Below, in pieces: positions 12,029-18,537 of a stretch of 64,000 nt of DNA. The DNA is from Escherichia coli (GTDB taxonomy: Bacteria; Pseudomonadota; Gammaproteobacteria; Enterobacterales; Enterobacteriaceae): NCBI RefSeq assembly GCF_003334405.1, contig NZ_QOWM01000004.1; one strand, written 5' to 3'. Numbering within the stretch: the first letter of the stretch is position 1; each line of letters opens with the position of its first letter. The notes under the pieces were generated by a model that did not search any database, was not told the DNA's origin, and worked only from the letters and a program-made list of their open reading frames with translations. A program made the translations under genes and the position numbers.

Positions 12029-13294
12029 TCAAACATCCATGCCCAACGCTCGCTTACCGTGAATGTTGAGGTCGGCAAGCGTAAAGCGTCCTTCCCAGTT
12101 TGTTTCATAGTCCTCGCGCGGGAAGTCGCCCGGCGATGCGCCTTTTTCCAGTGCGGCCTTCACCTTGTGCGCGTAGGCAAGATTTTTCTCGCACATCGGT
12201 GCCGCAGGAATGTACATCACGTTGCCCCAACCTTGTTGATTTTCAACGGGGGCAACGGAATGGATGACGTCGCAGTGCCACCAGACGGAGTCTCCGGCTT
12301 CGAGTTTTGGAATGCTGGTTAACGCCTCAATCAACAGTGGATGCCATTGCTCTGATACCGGCAATACTCTTCCGGGCGCTACGCCGCACAGTTCATCCTC
12401 CGGCACATCATCAAGCAGCGGACGTAACAGTACGTACGCCATAGCTTCAGGAATGGGCACGACGTGCAGCAGCCCCTGACCAGGCAGCATATCAGAGAGC
12501 GCTGTCCAGCCCTGGAATGTCCGAAACACGGAACATTTGGTGGTGTTGTCCACCGTGTACTCTTCAACTTCCGTACGATGTGCCGCATGCCAGGGATCAT
12601 ATTGCGCCAGATTGCCATTAAAGACGTTGGCGAAAACGCGCTGATACGCTGGAAGCAGCCAGCGTTCCAGTGCCCCGGAGTCGGTATGCGCTCCAAGACC
12701 TTTGGAGGTCGTTCCGGGCGGACGGCGGCGGATACGGTCAGGGTAGATGACGCTCACATCCGGGTTAAACCATTGCTTTCCATCACTTTCAAATGTCCAC
12801 AGACGATTGAGAAACGACTGCGCATTCGCCATTTCTTCACTCTGGCGGGCCTGCATTTGCGCCTGCGACCAGTAGATGGGGTAAATCTCGGGACGTGAAG
12901 CGCTGAGCGTCCCGAAGAAATTATCGCCGGGGCCTTTGTAGACCTCGTCAAAGCGGTTGCGGTCCAGATAGTCCAGCATCGACTGATCCCAGCCTAGCGC
13001 TTGTTCGCGGGGGAAATGGCCTTTTATCACCGCACAACCGCGACGTTTAATCTGTTCGCGCTGCTCTGCAGTAACATGACCTGCTTTGATATCGGCATAA
13101 GACAGCACCGGCCAGACGGCATCGCCCTGTGCTTTGAGTGCGTTGATTTCAGCCACTCGCGTGGCAATGTCATCGCTTAGCTGATTAAAGATCTGCTGGA
13201 CGTCGCCAAGCTGCGCCCGCAGCGCGTGCTTCATCTGACGGATAGCTGCTTTGTGATCGGCAGGCAATGTGTCGCTGGTAAAAGTAGAAGCCAT
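12029..13294 (-). CDS. ybiU: Uncharacterised protein YbiU (DUF1479 family)
   Basis: ORF track 12029..13300 (-); known N-terminus MASTFTSDTLPADHKAAIRQ begins at the ATG at 13292-13294, preceded by a GAGGTGG SD. Confidence 0.85.
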   Translation of the reverse strand: MASTFTSDTLPADHKAAIRQMKHALRAQLGDVQQIFNQLSDDIATRVAEINALKAQGDAVWPVLSYADIKAGHVTAEQREQIKRRGCAVIKGHFPREQALGWDQSMLDYLDRNRFDEVYKGPGDNFFGTLSASRPEIYPIYWSQAQMQARQSEEMANAQSFLNRLWTFESDGKQWFNPDVSVIYPDRIRRRPPGTTSKGLGAHTDSGALERWLLPAYQRVFANVFNGNLAQYDPWHAAHRTEVEEYTVDNTTKCSVFRTFQGWTALSDMLPGQGLLHVVPIPEAMAYVLLRPLLDDVPEDELCGVAPGRVLPVSEQWHPLLIEALTSIPKLEAGDSVWWHCDVIHSVAPVENQQGWGNVMYIPAAPMCEKNLAYAHKVKAALEKGASPGDFPREDYETNWEGRFTLADLNIHGKRALGMDV

Positions 13295-13310
13295 AACCAC
13301 CTCTCATTAA

Positions 13311-13323
13311 CTTTCATTCGAAA
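13311..13323 (-). promoter_or_regulatory. Motif copy A: TTTCGAATGAAAG (extended TTTCGAATGAAAGTTA) in the ybiU 5' region
   Basis: Plus strand reads CTTTCATTCGAAA; exact 13-mer shared with 14332-14344 and 17780-17792, 16-mer shared with the latter. Confidence 0.35.
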
Positions 13324-13401
13324 CCATTCTGATTTGCATGTGACAATATAAGTTATAAATAAGTTAATGCAAGTTTAATGATTTGATGTGATGTACAGGA
13401 T

Positions 13402-13438
13402 GTAAAAAGAAGGGAAAACCGGAGCGCACGGCTCCGGT
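13402..13438 (-). terminator. Rho-independent terminator downstream of ybiV
   Basis: Minus-strand CCGGAGCCGTGCGCTCCGG hairpin followed by TTTTCCCTTCTTTTT. Confidence 0.6.
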
Positions 13439-13445
13439 AGAGAGG

Positions 13446-14261
13446 TCAGCTGTTAAAAGGGGATGTGTTATCCAGCACCGCCTGAATCACATTCAGCGCG
13501 CCTTCATGATTATTATCATCGGTAGCGTAACGGGCGATTTGTTTAATGTTTTCCGCAGCATTGCCCATCGCAAAGGAATAACGCGCCATTTTCAGCATCT
13601 CCGCATCGTTACCGCTGTCGCCAATCGCTACCACATTTTGCGGTGACAGATCCCAGCGTTTCAGTAACCGCGAAATACCGTTTGCTTTATGTAGACCGGG
13701 AATAATCAGGTCGATAAAGCCAAAACCACTGGTAACGGGTTTCATAATGCCATCGAGCGCTACGTGCAGTTTGTCGATCACTAACGGGATTTGTTCATCC
13801 GGCAGGTTGAGCGAAAACTTGAACAGTACGTCGTCAATCTCCTGATAATCTTTTACAGGTTTCAGGCGATGGTAGTGTTTTGCCATCAGTGCGACAAATG
13901 CTTCGGGGGCATTTTCGCTGACATATGCACTTTGCAGACCGCAGGCGACAAAATTGAGTTGCTTGTCTTTTAGCAACTCGCCAATAACAATCCGCGATTC
14001 ATGTCGGGTCAGTTCGCCGTGGAACAACTGCTTGCCATGTTCGTAAACCAGTGCGCCGTTTTCCGCGACAAAAGAGATCTCATCCTTTAGCTCAGGAAAG
14101 AATGAAATAAGCTGGTAATACTGATTACCGCTGGCAACAACGAACTTAATGCCGCGCTTTTTCAGTTCCTGATATTGCGCCATAAAACGTGGTTGGTTGT
14201 ACGTTTTGGCGTCGTTAAGAAAAGTACCGTCCATGTCTGTGACGATAACTTTTACGCTCAT
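13446..14261 (-). CDS. ybiV: HAD-family (Cof-type) sugar phosphatase YbiV
   Basis: ORF track 13446..14261 (-), 271 aa, [17 protein letters not shown]... with DxDGT HAD motif I; paralogue of ybjI in this window. Confidence 0.92.
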
Positions 14262-14331
14262 AGGTGTGCTCCTGGCTCGAAAATGAAACCGTAACAGTGT
14301 AATAACAATGTGACGCAGAGCACAAATTATA

Positions 14332-14344
14332 TTTCGAATGAAAG
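14332..14344 (+). promoter_or_regulatory. Motif copy B: TTTCGAATGAAAG between ybiW stop and ybiV start
   Basis: Exact 13-mer read directly; followed by ATTGATGATGTG, resembling the sequence after copy C. Confidence 0.35.
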
Positions 14345-14406
14345 TAAGGATGAAATTGATGATGTGAATGATTTAGCCCGGCGACGACGCCGCCGGGCCG
14401 AGGAGA

Positions 14407-16839
14407 TTACAGCATATGTTCAGTACGGGCGATGATATCGTCCTGAGCGTCTGGAGAGAGCGCGGTGAAGAACGCGGAATAGCCCGCGACACGCACTACC
14501 AGATCGCGATACTGATCGGGATGTTTTTTCGCATCCAGCAGCGTTTCGCGGGAAACGATGTTGTACTGAATATGCCAGCCTTTATGCACTTCAAAGAAGG
14601 TACGCAGCAGGATCATCAGTTTCTGCTTGTCAGATTCGTTCTCCAGCGTTGCCGGATTCAGTTTCTGGTTGAGCAACACGCCGCCGAGAATCGCTGCCGT
14701 AGGCAGTTTACCCACTGAGCCAATGACCGCAGTAGGGCCAAGATGGTCAGTACCGGAGGCCGGGCTTGCGCCTTCTGCCAGCGGGGTGTGGGCTTTACGC
14801 CCGTCCGGTGTTGCCATAGTCTGCGCGCCAAACGGTACGTTAGCGGAGATTGATGACGTACCCGCGTAATAGTTGCCGCCAACCGGACCACGACCGTAGC
14901 GCGGATTATGGTACTGTTTCAGTTCGTCGATATAGGTCTGATAAGCGCGAGCCAGCAGCGTATCGACAGTATCATCGTCGTTGCCGTACTTCGGCGCACC
15001 GTTAATCAGCCGCTGACGCAGCTGCTCGTGAGTCAGGCCGTCGAAGTCATCTGCCAGTGCGGCAGCAAGCTGTTGCTGACCAATCGCACCTTGTTCAAAC
15101 ACCAGTTTCTTCACTGCCGCCAGGCTGTTGCCGAGGTTGGCAATGCCGACCTGCAGGCCAGAAACCCAGTCATATTTCGCGCCGCCTTGCTTGATACTTT
15201 TCGCTCGCTCAATACAGTCATCCACCAGCGCCGAGCAGAGAATATCGTGCACGTTCTCTTCCAGCATGGTGTCGACGACATATTCGATTTCGATTGATTT
15301 GCGGGTGTAGTAACGGATTTGCGTATCCCACGCGTCCATCACTTCATCGAAGTTGTTGAAGTTACCTGCCGACAACGCTTTTTCTTGTGGCAGGAACACT
15401 TTGCCGCTGGTGGCATCATGCCCGCCTTCCAGCGCCGCCAGCATCACGCGGGCGAAGTTGATAAAGCTCATGCCGGTACAGCGATAGCCCCATTTGCCAC
15501 CGACGGCGGTTTCTATACAACCAATCGCTGCGTAGTCATAAGCGTCCTGCGGTTCAATACCGAGTTTAATAAATTCCGGGATCACGATTTCGTCGTTGTT
15601 GAACGCCGGCATCCCGAAGCCGCAACGGATCACCTGTACGCAGGCGTCGAGGAAATCGTTGCTCATTCCTGCATGGTAACGCACGCTGAGGTTAGGCTGA
15701 GTGGAACGCAGGCGACCGCAGGATTCGAGGATCGCGTAAGAGAGTGGATTCACCGCGTCCATTGGTTGACCATCAACCAGATTTTGCCCGCCAATAGTGA
15801 CGTTCTGATACAGCGGACTTCCCGCAGAGGCTTTTGAGTGTGAGCCGGAGCGGATCTTGTTCACTTCCAGCAGTTTCAGCCAGCAGCTATGCAGCATCTC
15901 GATGGCGTGTTCGCGATCCAGCGTCTGGTTGAGTTCAACGTCGCGGCGATAGTACGGGTAGAGATACTGGTCCATACGACCAAACGATACTGAGTGACCG
16001 TTAGATTCGATCTGCAAAATCAACTGGATGAAGTAACACAGTTGCAGCGCCTGCCAGAAAGTCTGCGGCGGCTGGTGGGCGATAAGATCGCAGTTTTCTG
16101 CCATCGCCAGCAGTTCATCGCGACGGCTTTCGCGGGTTTCGGTCGCGGCCATTTCACGCGCCAGGGCAGCGAAACGTTCAATGTGTTCACTGACTGCCAC
16201 CAGCACGATATCAATCGCTTTCAGGAATTGCTCACCGTGTAAATCTTCCAGCACCGTCAGGTTGATGCGCGAGCGACGTTCCGCTACTTTCTCGCGCAGA
16301 CCATCAAGCCCTTTTTCCAGCAGCAGCGGGAAATTCACCGCCAGGTGCGCATCGCCGGAGGTCATATTGCCTTCCGCTTTAATGATTCCGGTCGCCAGCA
16401 GACCTTTTTGCTCATCGGTAAACATGCCGTAGCAGCGATCCTGTACGGTCTGACCGCGCCACCACGGGCACACTTCATGCAGAACGCGTTTGTTCTCTTC
16501 GCTCACCGCAAAGCCAGCACCGGGACGATCTGCCAGATCATCAATCTCTTTTTCGATCCACGAGACAGTATATTCCGGGAAGATCGGCGCGGCGCGAACT
16601 TCGCTTGCCTGGTTGCCAATGATCAACTCATCGTGTTTGATCCAGATGGTGCGATTCGCCAGGTGATGCGCCAGTGCCAGCGCGCGACGTACCGGGATCG
16701 GCTTATCGAGATGTTGTTGATACATCTCGGTATAGTGCTGCGCGCGCTCGGTACAGACTGGCGGTTTCACAATATGCACCAGCGCATTTTTGTGCGCTTT
16801 AATGCGGTCGCTGAGCGTGTCCAGTTTCAGTGTGGTCAT
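14407..16839 (-). CDS. ybiW: Glycyl-radical enzyme YbiW (pyruvate formate-lyase family, substrate unassigned here)
   Basis: ORF track 14407..16839 (-), 810 aa; C-terminal glycyl-radical fingerprint RVAGYSAFF; PFL-like length. Confidence 0.92.
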   Translation of the reverse strand: MTTLKLDTLSDRIKAHKNALVHIVKPPVCTERAQHYTEMYQQHLDKPIPVRRALALAHHLANRTIWIKHDELIIGNQASEVRAAPIFPEYTVSWIEKEIDDLADRPGAGFAVSEENKRVLHEVCPWWRGQTVQDRCYGMFTDEQKGLLATGIIKAEGNMTSGDAHLAVNFPLLLEKGLDGLREKVAERRSRINLTVLEDLHGEQFLKAIDIVLVAVSEHIERFAALAREMAATETRESRRDELLAMAENCDLIAHQPPQTFWQALQLCYFIQLILQIESNGHSVSFGRMDQYLYPYYRRDVELNQTLDREHAIEMLHSCWLKLLEVNKIRSGSHSKASAGSPLYQNVTIGGQNLVDGQPMDAVNPLSYAILESCGRLRSTQPNLSVRYHAGMSNDFLDACVQVIRCGFGMPAFNNDEIVIPEFIKLGIEPQDAYDYAAIGCIETAVGGKWGYRCTGMSFINFARVMLAALEGGHDATSGKVFLPQEKALSAGNFNNFDEVMDAWDTQIRYYTRKSIEIEYVVDTMLEENVHDILCSALVDDCIERAKSIKQGGAKYDWVSGLQVGIANLGNSLAAVKKLVFEQGAIGQQQLAAALADDFDGLTHEQLRQRLINGAPKYGNDDDTVDTLLARAYQTYIDELKQYHNPRYGRGPVGGNYYAGTSSISANVPFGAQTMATPDGRKAHTPLAEGASPASGTDHLGPTAVIGSVGKLPTAAILGGVLLNQKLNPATLENESDKQKLMILLRTFFEVHKGWHIQYNIVSRETLLDAKKHPDQYRDLVVRVAGYSAFFTALSPDAQDDIIARTEHML

Positions 16840-16844
16840 GGTTG

Positions 16845-17744
16845 TTATCCTCGTAAGGTCGCGGTTAACCCTTTCTGGCAGGCATACTGCTGGGCAAAGT
16901 CGAGCAGTTCTGGCGCATCAAGCGGTTTTTCCGGGGCGTCATAGGGCAGATTAAGTAAGTGATATTTGTTGATGCCCAGCGTGTGGTAGGGCAGAAAATG
17001 AATTTCGCCAACGTGCAGCTCGTCGGCGGCAAAATCGGTAATGGCTTTTACAGAGGTTTCGTCGGCATTAAAGCCCTGAATCAGCGGCACGCGGATAATG
17101 ATTTTTTTGCCCGCTGCGGCGAGTTTTTTCAGGTTATCCAGCACTCTGGCGGCGTTACCGTCGGTCCACTGTTTAAACGGCGCGTCGGCAACGTGTTTTA
17201 AATCGGCAAGAAACAGATCGATATAGGGCAGAGAAGGGGCGATATATTTCCACGGCACATGCAGACAGGTTTCTACCGCAGTATGAATGCCTGCCTCGTG
17301 GCTGGCTTGCAGTAGCGCCATCGCCATTTCCGGCTGCATAAAGGGCTCACCACCCGAAAGCGTTAAACCGCCGCCGCTGCGATCGTAAAACGGTTTATCG
17401 CGCAGAACGGTCGTCATGATCTCCTCAACGCTTTTCACTTCACCACACACGGTTAATGCCTGTGTCGGACAGCAGTCGGTTAACGCCGTCAGATGCTCCG
17501 GGGTTAACTTTTCCCGATGAATAAGCAAACCATTCAGCGCGCGCTCAATCACTTCCGGCGCGGCCTTAGCGCACAGCTCGCAGCCTTCCAGACACAGTCG
17601 TGCGTCATACAGCAGATCCTGCGTGCGGGCGCGGCTTTCCGGGTTCTGACACCAGCGGCAGCCCAGCGAACAGCCTTTAAGAAATACGACCGTGCGGATA
17701 CCGGGGCCATCATGGGTCGAGTAGCGCTGAATATTGAAAATCAT
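16845..17744 (-). CDS. ybiY: Glycyl-radical enzyme activating enzyme YbiY (radical SAM)
   Basis: ORF track 16845..17771 (-); CxxxCxxC radical-SAM motif (CSLGCRWC) plus extra Cys clusters; start placed at the ATG at 17742-17744 (MIFNIQRY...), which has an AGAGG SD; the upstream in-frame ATG at 17771 is a possible alternative. Confidence 0.85.
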
Positions 17745-17779
17745 AGTTGCCTCTCTATTTCGTTCAAGCATTAAAATAC

Positions 17780-17792
17780 TTTCGAATGAAAG
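17780..17792 (+). promoter_or_regulatory. Motif copy C: TTTCGAATGAAAG (16-mer TTTCGAATGAAAGTTA) in the ybiY/fsaA divergent region
   Basis: Exact 13-mer; with its 5' C it forms the inverted repeat CTTTC-N4-GAAAG. Confidence 0.35.
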
Positions 17793-17797
17793 TTAGA

Positions 17798-17811
17798 TTG
17801 ATGTGCGTCAA
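17798..17811. promoter_or_regulatory. FNR-like site TTGAT-N4-GTCAA (9/10 match to TTGAT-N4-ATCAA) in the ybiY/fsaA divergent region
   Basis: TTGATGTGCGTCAA read directly; centre lies about 41 bp upstream of a plausible ybiY transcription start if ybiY begins at 17744. Confidence 0.3.
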
Positions 17812-17874
17812 CTGTTCAGAGAGTTTTCCCGTGATAGTCTACATTCAGACAAAAAGTACATTTTGAGGATGGTT

Positions 17875-18537
17875 ATGGAACTGTATCTGGATACTTCAGA
17901 CGTTGTTGCGGTGAAGGCGCTGTCACGTATTTTTCCGCTGGCGGGTGTGACCACTAACCCAAGCATTATCGCCGCGGGTAAAAAACCGCTGGATGTTGTG
18001 CTTCCGCAACTTCATGAAGCGATGGGCGGTCAGGGGCGTCTGTTTGCCCAGGTAATGGCTACCACTGCCGAAGGGATGGTTAATGACGCGCTTAAGCTGC
18101 GTTCTATTATTGCGGATATCGTGGTGAAAGTTCCGGTGACCGCCGAGGGGCTGGCAGCTATTAAGATGTTAAAAGCGGAAGGGATTCCGACGCTGGGAAC
18201 CGCGGTATATGGCGCAGCACAAGGGCTGCTGTCGGCGCTGGCAGGTGCGGAATATGTTGCGCCTTACGTTAATCGTATTGATGCTCAGGGCGGTAGCGGC
18301 ATTCAGACTGTGACCGACTTACACCAGTTATTGAAAATGCATGCGCCGCAGGCGAAAGTGCTGGCAGCGAGTTTCAAAACCCCGCGTCAGGCGCTGGACT
18401 GCTTACTGGCAGGATGTGAATCAATTACTCTGCCACTGGATGTGGCACAACAGATGATTAGCTATCCGGCGGTTGATGCCGCTGTGGCGAAGTTTGAGCA
18501 GGACTGGCAGGGAGCGTTTGGCAGAACGTCGATTTAA
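17875..18537 (+). CDS. fsaA: Fructose-6-phosphate aldolase 1
   Basis: Known N-terminus [16 protein letters not shown] at the ATG at 17875, 220 aa, transaldolase-like; track ORF 17803..18537 starts upstream. Confidence 0.92.

Follow-up and report, generated by a model that had tools for sequence, protein, structure and literature searches.

Three exact copies of a TTTC-N4-GAAA palindrome in the ybiU-ybiV-ybiW-ybiY/fsaA locus of Escherichia coli as probable operators of the DeoR-family repressor YciT

Three identical copies of the 13-mer TTTCGAATGAAAG in the ybi/fsaA locus are very probably operators that YciT binds with high affinity. The gene for this DeoR-family (AgaR-like) repressor lies at another place in the chromosome. 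We hold this reading with high confidence; it draws on the identity and conservation of the motif, on synteny, and on ChIP-exo, RNA-seq and DNA-affinity results in the literature. YciT and its regulon are already known from work published in 2021 and 2025-26. As YciT has been published as the controller of this cluster, the observation is real and the biology largely known. The additions here are the exact operator coordinates, a third operator and a conserved FNR-type box 5 bp from one of the operators.

Motif copies and their conservation

The window, the whole 64-kb stretch of DNA analyzed, is K-12-like with 99.98% identity to MG1655 across 44 kb, and a window position equals the NC_000913.3 coordinate minus 845767. 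A reading of the sequence alone had proposed that an exact 13-16 nt motif recurs three times in non-coding DNA around this cluster. We recovered three perfect copies of TTTCGAATGAAAG, designated operators C, B and A in order of position (copies 1, 2 and 3; Table 1), while 100 dinucleotide-preserving shuffles of the window contained none, giving 0 expected by chance. Copy 1 is 16 nt 5' of the ybiU ATG (13294), copy 2 in the ybiW-ybiV spacer and copy 3 in the divergent region between ybiY and fsaA. The copies are 1021 and 3448 bp apart in one locus, all within 4.5 kb. In NC_000913.3 they correspond to 859078-859090 (copy 1), 860099-860111 (copy 2) and 863547-863559 (copy 3). All three share the 14-mer TTTCGAATGAAAGT; the 16-mer TTTCGAATGAAAGTTA, also noticed in the sequence-only reading, is common to copies 1 and 3. 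The window holds one other match with at most two mismatches (61279), and matches with exactly three number 16 per 64 kb. The CTTTC-N4-GAAAG inverted repeat that the same reading had ascribed to the motif is complete in copy 3 but not in copies 1 and 2, where the 5' flanking base is G and A, respectively. The palindrome common to all three is TTTC-N4-GAAA.

Table 1. Features of the ybi/fsaA locus, in window coordinates
Feature	Position	Strand	Sequence and context
Operator C (ybiU)	13311..13323	-	exact TTTCGAATGAAAG on the ybiU sense strand
Putative ybiU promoter	13345..13372	-	TTGCAT 13367-13372, 16 nt, TATATT 13345-13350
CRP-like palindrome	14309..14324		TGTGACGCAGAGCACA; 1 mismatch to TGTGA-N6-TCACA; kept in 48/48 aligned loci
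Operator B (ybiW-ybiV spacer)	14332..14344	+	exact TTTCGAATGAAAG; 3' of ybiW terminator, 5' of ybiV start
Possible auxiliary operator A'	17757..17769	+	moderately conserved block, 22 bp from operator A
Operator A (ybiY/fsaA divergent region)	17780..17792	+	exact TTTCGAATGAAAG; with flanks ACTTTCGAATGAAAGT, 6-bp arms
FNR-type box	17798..17811		TTGATGTGCGTCAA; 9/10 to TTGAT-N4-ATCAA; 5 bp from operator A

Orthologous loci, a comparison that the earlier reading had called for, retain the palindrome at the same promoter positions in 46 to 78 cases across Enterobacterales. The loci were collected through YbiW orthologues, as a scan for an exact 14-mer would meet about 2000 hits by chance. TTTC-N4-GAAA is found 47-63 nt 5' of the ybiY start in 78 of 80 loci, 78-84 nt 5' of the ybiV start in 48 of 48 and 20-38 nt 5' of the ybiU start in 46 of 46. 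These positions are kept across genera with at least 15% YbiW protein divergence, even though the intergenic sequence around them has diverged. The operator A columns are 90-100% conserved across genera and the flanks are variable. At operator C the central tetramer is GAAT in 41 loci. At operator B it is ATTC in 20 loci, GAAT in 19 and ATAT in 7, the arms staying fixed as the center flips.

YciT binding and repression

The earlier proposal of a single regulator co-ordinating the cluster was supported, with YciT named from its ChIP-exo peaks elsewhere in the genome, RNA-seq of a ΔyciT strain and linkage of yciT to the cluster in 17 loci. YciT (b1284) belongs to the DeoR family and scores 488 bits against its own NCBIfam model versus 151 against AgaR, the nearest other model. 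A yciT orthologue lies beside ybiYW/fsaA in 17 of the 80 loci, all from more distant genera (including Buttiauxella, Cedecea, Franconibacter, Serratia, Pantoea, Brenneria and Rouxiella) and mostly about 45 bp after ybiW. The linked orthologues are 58-81% identical, with the NCBIfam YciT model the best by more than 200 bits. All 17 of these loci carry the motif (≤2 mismatches) 5' of ybiY.

As a genome-wide map of YciT sites we used the published ChIP-exo peak list (Gao et al. 2021, PMC8464067), converted from NC_000913.2 to NC_000913.3, and tested the 14 peaks outside the ybi locus. In MG1655, 12 of the 14 contain a match to the 13-mer with at most three mismatches (ybiO, pdeR, yfcV, sixA, rdcA, yjiT, yjjI/deoC, dmsA, oppA, lrhA, yhgE and bsmA). 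The match begins 9-11 nt into a peak of about 30 bp; in the longer yjiT peak (52 bp) it begins after 30 nt. One more peak, that of ompX, contains TTTC-N5-GAAA. The YciT motif was itself described as palindromic (PMC8464067).

The expression data point the same way. Deletion of yciT changed ybiY by +7.7, ybiU by +7.0, ybiW by +3.5, ybiV by +2.2 and fsaA by +1.8 log2 units (PMC8464067, dataset S6). With yciT itself set aside, the differential-expression list is led by ybiY, ybiU and ybiW, and ybiV and fsaA come within its first 15. In Reg-Seq, DNA chromatography with mass spectrometry found YciT enriched on a ybiYp bait (10.1101/2025.05.13.653802), as would be expected of a repressor whose site overlaps that of RNA polymerase. 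Against repression, the same authors report that RegulonDB lists YciT as an activator. Our search of the Reg-Seq supplements for ybiY returned no entry.

Within the locus itself the published binding map agrees less well. After conversion the two ybi ChIP-exo peaks are off the motif, by about 112 bp at operator A and about 163 bp at operator C, and no peak is listed for operator B. The conversion works for the other motif-bearing peaks, with the ybi peaks remaining +112 and +163 bp away. Reading the ybi peaks as.3 coordinates made the fit worse, as they then fall within ybiU and ybiY. The Reg-Seq authors, too, remarked on a mismatch of about 100 bp (10.1101/2025.05.13.653802). The candidate operator between ybiW and ybiV is an addition beyond the published peak list.

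These displaced peaks argue for another explanation, that the motif is the operator of a different protein (AgaR or another paralogue of the DeoR family, or an unknown factor) and that YciT acts through sequences at a distance of about 100-160 bp. Related sites that contain TTTC are recognized by DeoR paralogues, and the sequences under both ybi peaks share the 7-mer CTGGATA. However, CTGGATA is part of coding sequence, and the probability of sharing it by chance is roughly 0.07. Further against this explanation, 12 of the 14 other YciT peaks have the motif at their center, yciT is the neighbor of a ybiYW promoter with the motif in 17 loci, and Reg-Seq puts YciT on the core ybiY promoter and not 100 bp off. 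We therefore consider a different protein improbable.

Promoter context of the three operators

A generic promoter and terminator scan confirmed a terminator after ybiV. It did not detect the weak but conserved promoters, which is why we assigned promoters by phylogenetic footprinting. Between ybiY and fsaA the predicted ybiY start site is at about 17763, with a -10 element TTTAAT at 17770-17775. The predicted fsaA start site is at about 17847, with an extended -10 element TGaTAGTCT at 17832-17840. Operator A would then span about -16 to -29 of the ybiY promoter, with its center at about -61.5 of the fsaA promoter. The neighboring FNR-type box is also found in other genera, its distance from operator A being constant. 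Its center (17804.5) falls at -41.5 from the predicted ybiY start and about -42.5 from that of fsaA, a geometry that fits the predicted -10 elements on both sides. The string ATTGATG-TG, which had been noted after two of the motif copies, is after copy 3 the left half of this conserved box; the similar string after copy 2 is confined to Escherichia and not conserved in other genera.

By Reg-Seq the ybiY promoter is active only anaerobically and has the footprint of an unidentified activator upstream of the YciT site (10.1101/2025.05.13.653802). The putative FNR box would explain both the anaerobic activation and this footprint. Our literature search found no paper naming both ybiY and FNR, nor a start-site map or fnr-mutant data. 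The block A', tentatively an auxiliary operator, is the degenerate ATTTCGTTCAAGC in K-12 and TT(T/G)C(G/A)TATGAAGA in most of the other genera. The block overlaps the predicted ybiY start site, and its conservation could equally reflect the promoter or start site.

Operator C is directly 5' of the ybiU Shine-Dalgarno sequence (GAGAGG). With a predicted start site at about 13338, it would span about +16 to +28 of the ybiU promoter. The promoter block is 90-100% conserved among 47 sequences from many genera; it matches the consensus at 8 of 12 positions, under the threshold of the promoter scan. Three AAGTTA/AAGTTT repeats with a phasing of about 11 bp overlap the putative promoter.

In the ybiW-ybiV spacer, operator B is 7 bp from the CRP-like palindrome and upstream of it in the ybiV direction. 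The ybiV start site is tentatively predicted near 14289. The center of the palindrome is near -27.5 relative to a conserved TAGAAT/TACACT -10-like hexamer; relative to this -10, neither a class I nor a class II CRP position fits.

The position of operator C also bears on the earlier suggestion of a shared RNA leader element, in which a small CUUUC-loop-GAAAG hairpin in the mRNA leaders would control translation or stability. Copy 1 is probably transcribed, placed as it is beside the Shine-Dalgarno sequence, and the arms could pair around a loop that differs between taxa. Only copy 1 fits a leader, however. Copies 2 and 3 are in promoter or untranscribed positions and in the opposite orientation to their genes, copy 3 between the -10 element and the FNR box and copy 2 between the ybiW terminator and the ybiV promoter. 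The center of copy 2 flips orientation between genera, and the stem never covaries, its arms being invariant. An Rfam scan gave no match at E ≤ 1. The folded ybiU leader, at -7.8 kcal/mol, is no more stable than its shuffles, whose mean is -9.6 (z = +0.73). The same motif is also found under the ChIP-exo peaks of a DNA-binding protein, in genes as well as intergenic regions. Given the empty Rfam scan and the unstructured ybiU leader we rejected the RNA element, which we regard as highly improbable. Still more improbable is that the copies are functionless relics of a promoter duplication or a dispersed intergenic repeat: three identical copies in 4.5 kb, two with a common 16 nt, might suggest as much, but their flanks are unrelated with similarity ending at the 13-16-mer, and three exact copies in 64 kb, with no further one and with positions kept across genera in 46-78 orthologous loci, are unlike a REP/BIME-type repeat.

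Proposed regulation and comparison with known systems

With YciT as the regulator, the TTTC-N4-GAAA core would be the palindrome expected for a dimer, or dimer of dimers, of a winged-helix protein, and each operator would serve a promoter of its own in the 1,5-anhydroglucitol-6-phosphate ('radical glycolysis') cluster. Operator A would be in the core-promoter spacer of ybiY(W), between the -10 element and the class-II-positioned FNR box, and just upstream of the same box for the divergent fsaA promoter. Operator C would lie early in the ybiU transcript and operator B just upstream of the ybiV promoter region. YciT bound at ybiY and ybiU, which are derepressed 130-210-fold, would block RNA polymerase, and its interference would be weaker at fsaA and ybiV, which are derepressed 3-5-fold. 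For ybiYW and fsaA to be fully expressed, YciT would have to leave its sites and FNR to be active (anaerobiosis).

YbiW and YbiY are a glycyl-radical enzyme and its activase acting on 1,5-anhydroglucitol-6-phosphate, with FsaA as aldolase. The description of this anaerobic, gut-relevant sugar pathway dates only from 2024. YciT had been linked to osmolarity (Gao et al. 2021, PMC8464067), but its gene context rather suggests catabolism of 1,5-anhydroglucitol (Ma et al. 2024, per PMC12441222). From DeoR-family precedent and this pathway context (PMC12441222), the inducer is probably a pathway sugar phosphate, e.g. 1,5-anhydroglucitol-6-phosphate or 1-deoxyfructose-6-phosphate. More speculatively, YciT may be the substrate sensor for 1,5-anhydroglucitol radical glycolysis, released by one of these two compounds, with a single bidirectional FNR box providing 'anaerobic AND substrate' logic and the three operators joined in one looped, DeoR-like repressosome over 4.5 kb; we put this combined model forward as possible but doubtful. 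Such a repressosome, if it exists, would explain why the ChIP-exo borders lie off the motif and why the middle operator has no peak.

The published YciT regulon of E. coli K-12 (PMC8464067; 10.1101/2025.05.13.653802) is the same system, with YciT binding at ybiUVWY/fsaA, a palindromic motif, repression and an anaerobic ybiYW promoter. There, two peaks lie 112-163 bp off the motif and the text does not give the operator sequence, whereas here three candidate operators are placed to the base, which would remove an ambiguity of roughly 100 bp from the published binding positions. Also beyond the published regulon are the ybiW-ybiV operator, the FNR-type box as a proposed activator site, the cross-genus conservation and the yciT synteny. 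The operators do not reveal a new kind of regulation. Together with the likely FNR box, they could help in the search for the inducer and in the design of a switch that responds to anhydroglucitol.

A comparable DeoR-family case is DeoR itself, which represses the deo operon from three palindromic operators. These, too, are kilobases apart, and each is found at a promoter or close to one. A palindrome of 16 bp (TGTTAGAA.TTCTAACA) forms the DeoR operator, and looping is through an octamer. In contrast, the YciT sites are spaced 1.0 and 3.4 kb apart and each already overlaps or abuts its own promoter. AgaR of the aga regulon is also a DeoR-family repressor of a sugar-phosphate pathway with multiple sites in divergent promoters. 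Its operators reportedly contain TTTC half-sites, whereas the compact TTTC-N4-GAAA palindrome is that of YciT. The layout would match that of class II FNR promoters with a substrate-specific repressor, in which an FNR box at about -41.5 and a repressor site in the core promoter give AND logic for anaerobiosis and substrate. Unlike in those promoters, the single box here seems placed for both divergent promoters, at -41.5 and -42.5 from the predicted start sites.

The 13-mer and its conservation

Three exact copies of the 13-mer TTTCGAATGAAAG are found in the window at the positions reported in a sequence-only reading, while the count expected in dinucleotide-preserving shuffles of the window is 0. 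We term them operators C, B and A (copies 1, 2 and 3). The 14-mer TTTCGAATGAAAGT is common to all, and between copies 1 and 3 the identity extends to 16 nt, as also reported. The CTTTC-N4-GAAAG inverted repeat described in that reading is present only in copy 3 (with flanks, ACTTTC-GAAT-GAAAGT); the repeat common to all copies is TTTC-N4-GAAA. The window is E. coli K-12-like, with 99.98% identity to MG1655; subtracting 845767 from an NC_000913.3 coordinate gives the window coordinate.

Features of the ybi cluster in the window and motif matches in YciT peaks elsewhere
Feature	Window coordinates	Strand	Sequence	Remark
ybiU	to 13294	-		
Operator C	13311-13323	-	TTTCGAATGAAAG	at ybiU
ybiV	13446-14261	-		
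'ybiV' YciT ChIP-exo peak	13465-13498			NC_000913.3 859232-859265; 163 bp from operator C, inside ybiV 3' end
CRP-like palindrome	14309-14324		TGTGACGCAGAGCACA	conserved in 48/48 aligned ybiV upstream regions
Operator B	14332-14344	+	TTTCGAATGAAAG	ybiW-ybiV spacer
ybiW	14407-16839	-		
ybiY	16845-17744	-		
Operator A	17780-17792	+	TTTCGAATGAAAG	ybiY/fsaA divergent region
FNR-type box	17798-17811		TTGATGTGCGTCAA	TTGAC-gcac-ATCAA; 9/10 to consensus; conserved; 5 bp from operator A
fsaA	starts 17875	+		
'ybiY' YciT ChIP-exo peak	17883-17910			NC_000913.3 863650-863677; 112 bp from operator A, toward fsaA
ybiO peak site			TTTCGGGTGAAAG	
pdeR peak site			TTTCAAACGAAAG	
yfcV peak site			TTCCGAATGAAAG	
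sixA peak site			TTTCAGATGAAAG	
rdcA and yjiT peak sites			TTTCAAATGAAAA	same sequence in both
yjjI/deoC peak site			TTTCAAATGAATG	
dmsA peak site			TTTCGAGTGAAAA	
oppA peak site			TTTCAAATGAAAC	
lrhA peak site			TTCCGGATGAAAC	
yhgE peak site			TTCCGAACGAAAT	
bsmA peak site			TTTCGAATGAAAA	

Conservation in orthologous loci had been proposed as a check, and it holds. A search for YbiW orthologues across the Enterobacterales gave 80 loci, one per species, and their upstream regions were examined for TTTC-N4-GAAA with at most one arm mismatch. The motif lies 47-63 nt upstream of ybiY in 78 of the 80 loci, 78-84 nt upstream of ybiV in 48/48 and 20-38 nt upstream of ybiU in 46/46. In the intergenic alignments the motif columns are 90-100% conserved and the adjacent DNA is variable. 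This positional conservation excludes a functionless repeat. Upstream of ybiV the arms are invariant but the tetramer between them is not, being mostly ATTC (20 loci), GAAT (19) or ATAT (7), a pattern that fits a symmetric protein site; perfect palindromes, CTTTCATATGAAAG, are seen in Kosakonia. In Salmonella enterica subsp. diarizonae (L010, 9516-10404) ybiV has been flipped with respect to ybiW and ybiU, and its operator, TTTCGAATGAAAA, and CRP-like palindrome moved along with the gene.

YciT as the regulator

The regulator of the cluster is already named in the literature: YciT (Gao et al., PMC8464067). In their ΔyciT RNA-seq, log2 changes were +7.7 for ybiY, +7.0 for ybiU, +3.5 for ybiW, +2.2 for ybiV and +1.8 for fsaA, with ybiY, ybiU and ybiW topping the list, yciT itself aside. 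These five are exactly the genes flanking the three copies. A Reg-Seq study found the ybiYW promoter active only anaerobically, its DNA pulling down YciT, which overlaps the RNA polymerase footprint, and an activator footprint of an unnamed factor just upstream (10.1101/2025.05.13.653802).

After converting published peak coordinates from NC_000913.2 to.3, we took 14 YciT peaks outside the ybi cluster. A 13-mer match with at most three mismatches is present in 12, starting 9-11 nt into the ~30-bp peaks, that is, at their centre, and 30 nt into the 52-bp yjiT peak. The ompX peak has TTTC-N5-GAAA in place of the N4 spacing; no 13-mer-like match was found in the yffQ peak. Background in the 64-kb window is one match with at most two mismatches and 16 with exactly three. 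The 13-mer is therefore the YciT recognition sequence. Among the sites seen, only the three ybi copies are perfect-consensus. The peak with the variant TTTCAAATGAATG (L086, NC_000913.3 4617156-4617168) lies in the yjjI-deoC divergent region. It adjoins yjjI, another glycyl-radical-type gene, and also falls in the promoter region of deo, an operon with DeoR as its own repressor.

Both published ybi peaks fall in coding sequence after conversion, off the motif that lies inside 12 of the 14 others, and operator B has no peak in the published ChIP-exo list. The Reg-Seq authors likewise remarked on an offset of ~100 bp (10.1101/2025.05.13.653802). The offset may be an artefact of peak pairing where very strong sites cluster, or it may reflect a larger, looped complex. 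The 7-mer CTGGATA occurs in both ybi peaks, inverted in one relative to the other, perhaps by chance.

A YciT orthologue gene lies directly beside ybiYW/fsaA in 17 loci (Buttiauxella, Cedecea, Franconibacter, Serratia, Pantoea, Brenneria, Rouxiella, Affinibrenneria and others), usually ~45 bp downstream of ybiW. The encoded proteins are 58-81% identical to E. coli YciT and score 364-511 bits with the NCBIfam YciT model, against ~150 for the next family. These loci lack ybiV and ybiU and have only the ybiY/fsaA operator. This linkage marks YciT as the dedicated regulator of the ybi cluster, E. coli yciT having relocated away from it. Six Yersinia loci (L069, L071, L072, L074, L076, L078) have ybiYW, but their flanks lack fsaA, yciT, ybiV and ybiU and their upstream region is wholly different; four of the six carry TTGCCAATGAAAG or TTACCAATGAAAG there, which may be a diverged operator or may serve another regulator.

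A shared RNA leader, raised in the sequence-only reading, was rejected: the positions and orientation of the copies and the ChIP evidence oppose it, an Rfam search gave no match, and the ybiU leader has no stable fold (z = +0.73). That another protein binds the motif is unlikely, as the YciT peaks are motif-centred and yciT is syntenic with ybiYW/fsaA. The main interpretation of the sequence-only reading, a single regulator for the cluster, is right. The three-copy observation is real, and since regulator and regulon were already published, it is a rediscovery of YciT operators. New here are the placing of the operators to the base, the addition of a third one, the proposed FNR box and the conservation across genera. 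A further addition is the synteny of yciT with ybiYW, which connects YciT with anhydroglucitol catabolism and not with osmolarity.

According to a summary of Ma et al. 2024 (JACS 146:26187) in PMC12441222, YbiW is a glycyl-radical enzyme converting 1,5-anhydroglucitol-6-P to 1-deoxyfructose-6-P, strictly anaerobically. FsaA is annotated as an aldolase, YbiV as a sugar phosphatase. DeoR-family repressors (DeoR, GlpR, UlaR, LacR) typically sense a phosphorylated pathway intermediate. From this precedent and the YbiW pathway, we infer that the YciT inducer would be 1,5-anhydroglucitol-6-P or 1-deoxyfructose-6-P.

Predicted promoter layout at the three operators

Promoter anatomy was inferred from conservation footprints, and transcription start sites (TSSs) from sequence. 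Toward ybiY, site A consists of the FNR-type box (~-41.5), 5 nt, the operator (-16 to -29) and TTTAAT (17770-17775). Toward fsaA, with a conserved extended -10, TGnTAnnnT (17832-17840), the box is at ~-42.5 and the operator centre at ~-61.5. The operator thus lies in the ybiY core promoter but upstream of the fsaA activator site, matching the strong derepression of ybiY (>200-fold) and weak derepression of fsaA (~3.4-fold) in ΔyciT. This layout fits the Reg-Seq picture, in which an activator footprint lies ~15-20 bp upstream of the repressor site, and the predicted FNR-type box is likely the identity of that footprint. FNR would escape detection in Reg-Seq because the lysates were aerobic. A literature search for ybiY together with FNR found no paper naming both.

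Site B runs terminator, operator, conserved CRP-like TGTGC-N6-TCACA, 7 nt, and a conserved -10-like hexamer (TAGAAT/TACACT). This spacing centres the palindrome at ~-27.5, a non-activating position.

At site C the promoter, TTGCAT-16-TA(t/a)A(t/g)T, is strongly conserved and puts the operator at ~+16 to +28 from the inferred TSS, abutting the SD. YciT bound there would keep RNA polymerase from clearing the promoter; derepression of ybiU in ΔyciT is ~130-fold. Over the -35/-10 of this promoter lie direct repeats AAGTTA/AAGTTA/AAGTTT (13350-13376, 10-11-bp phasing), which we take to resemble ArcA-P direct-repeat sites. Such sites would be logical if YbiU, a putative oxygenase-like DUF1479 protein, were switched off anaerobically.

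The ybiU gene is dimorphic in E. coli. By megablast, the ybiU region of K-12 (window 12029-13440) has a match in only 4249 of 5426 complete genomes. In the GTDB representative E. coli (L002, 10517-11799) YbiU is 82% identical to that of K-12, compared with 97-99% for YbiV and YbiW, while K-12 and Citrobacter YbiU are 93% identical, which suggests allelic replacement through recombination. The operator is kept in both alleles, as TTTCGAACGAAAG in the non-K-12 allele.
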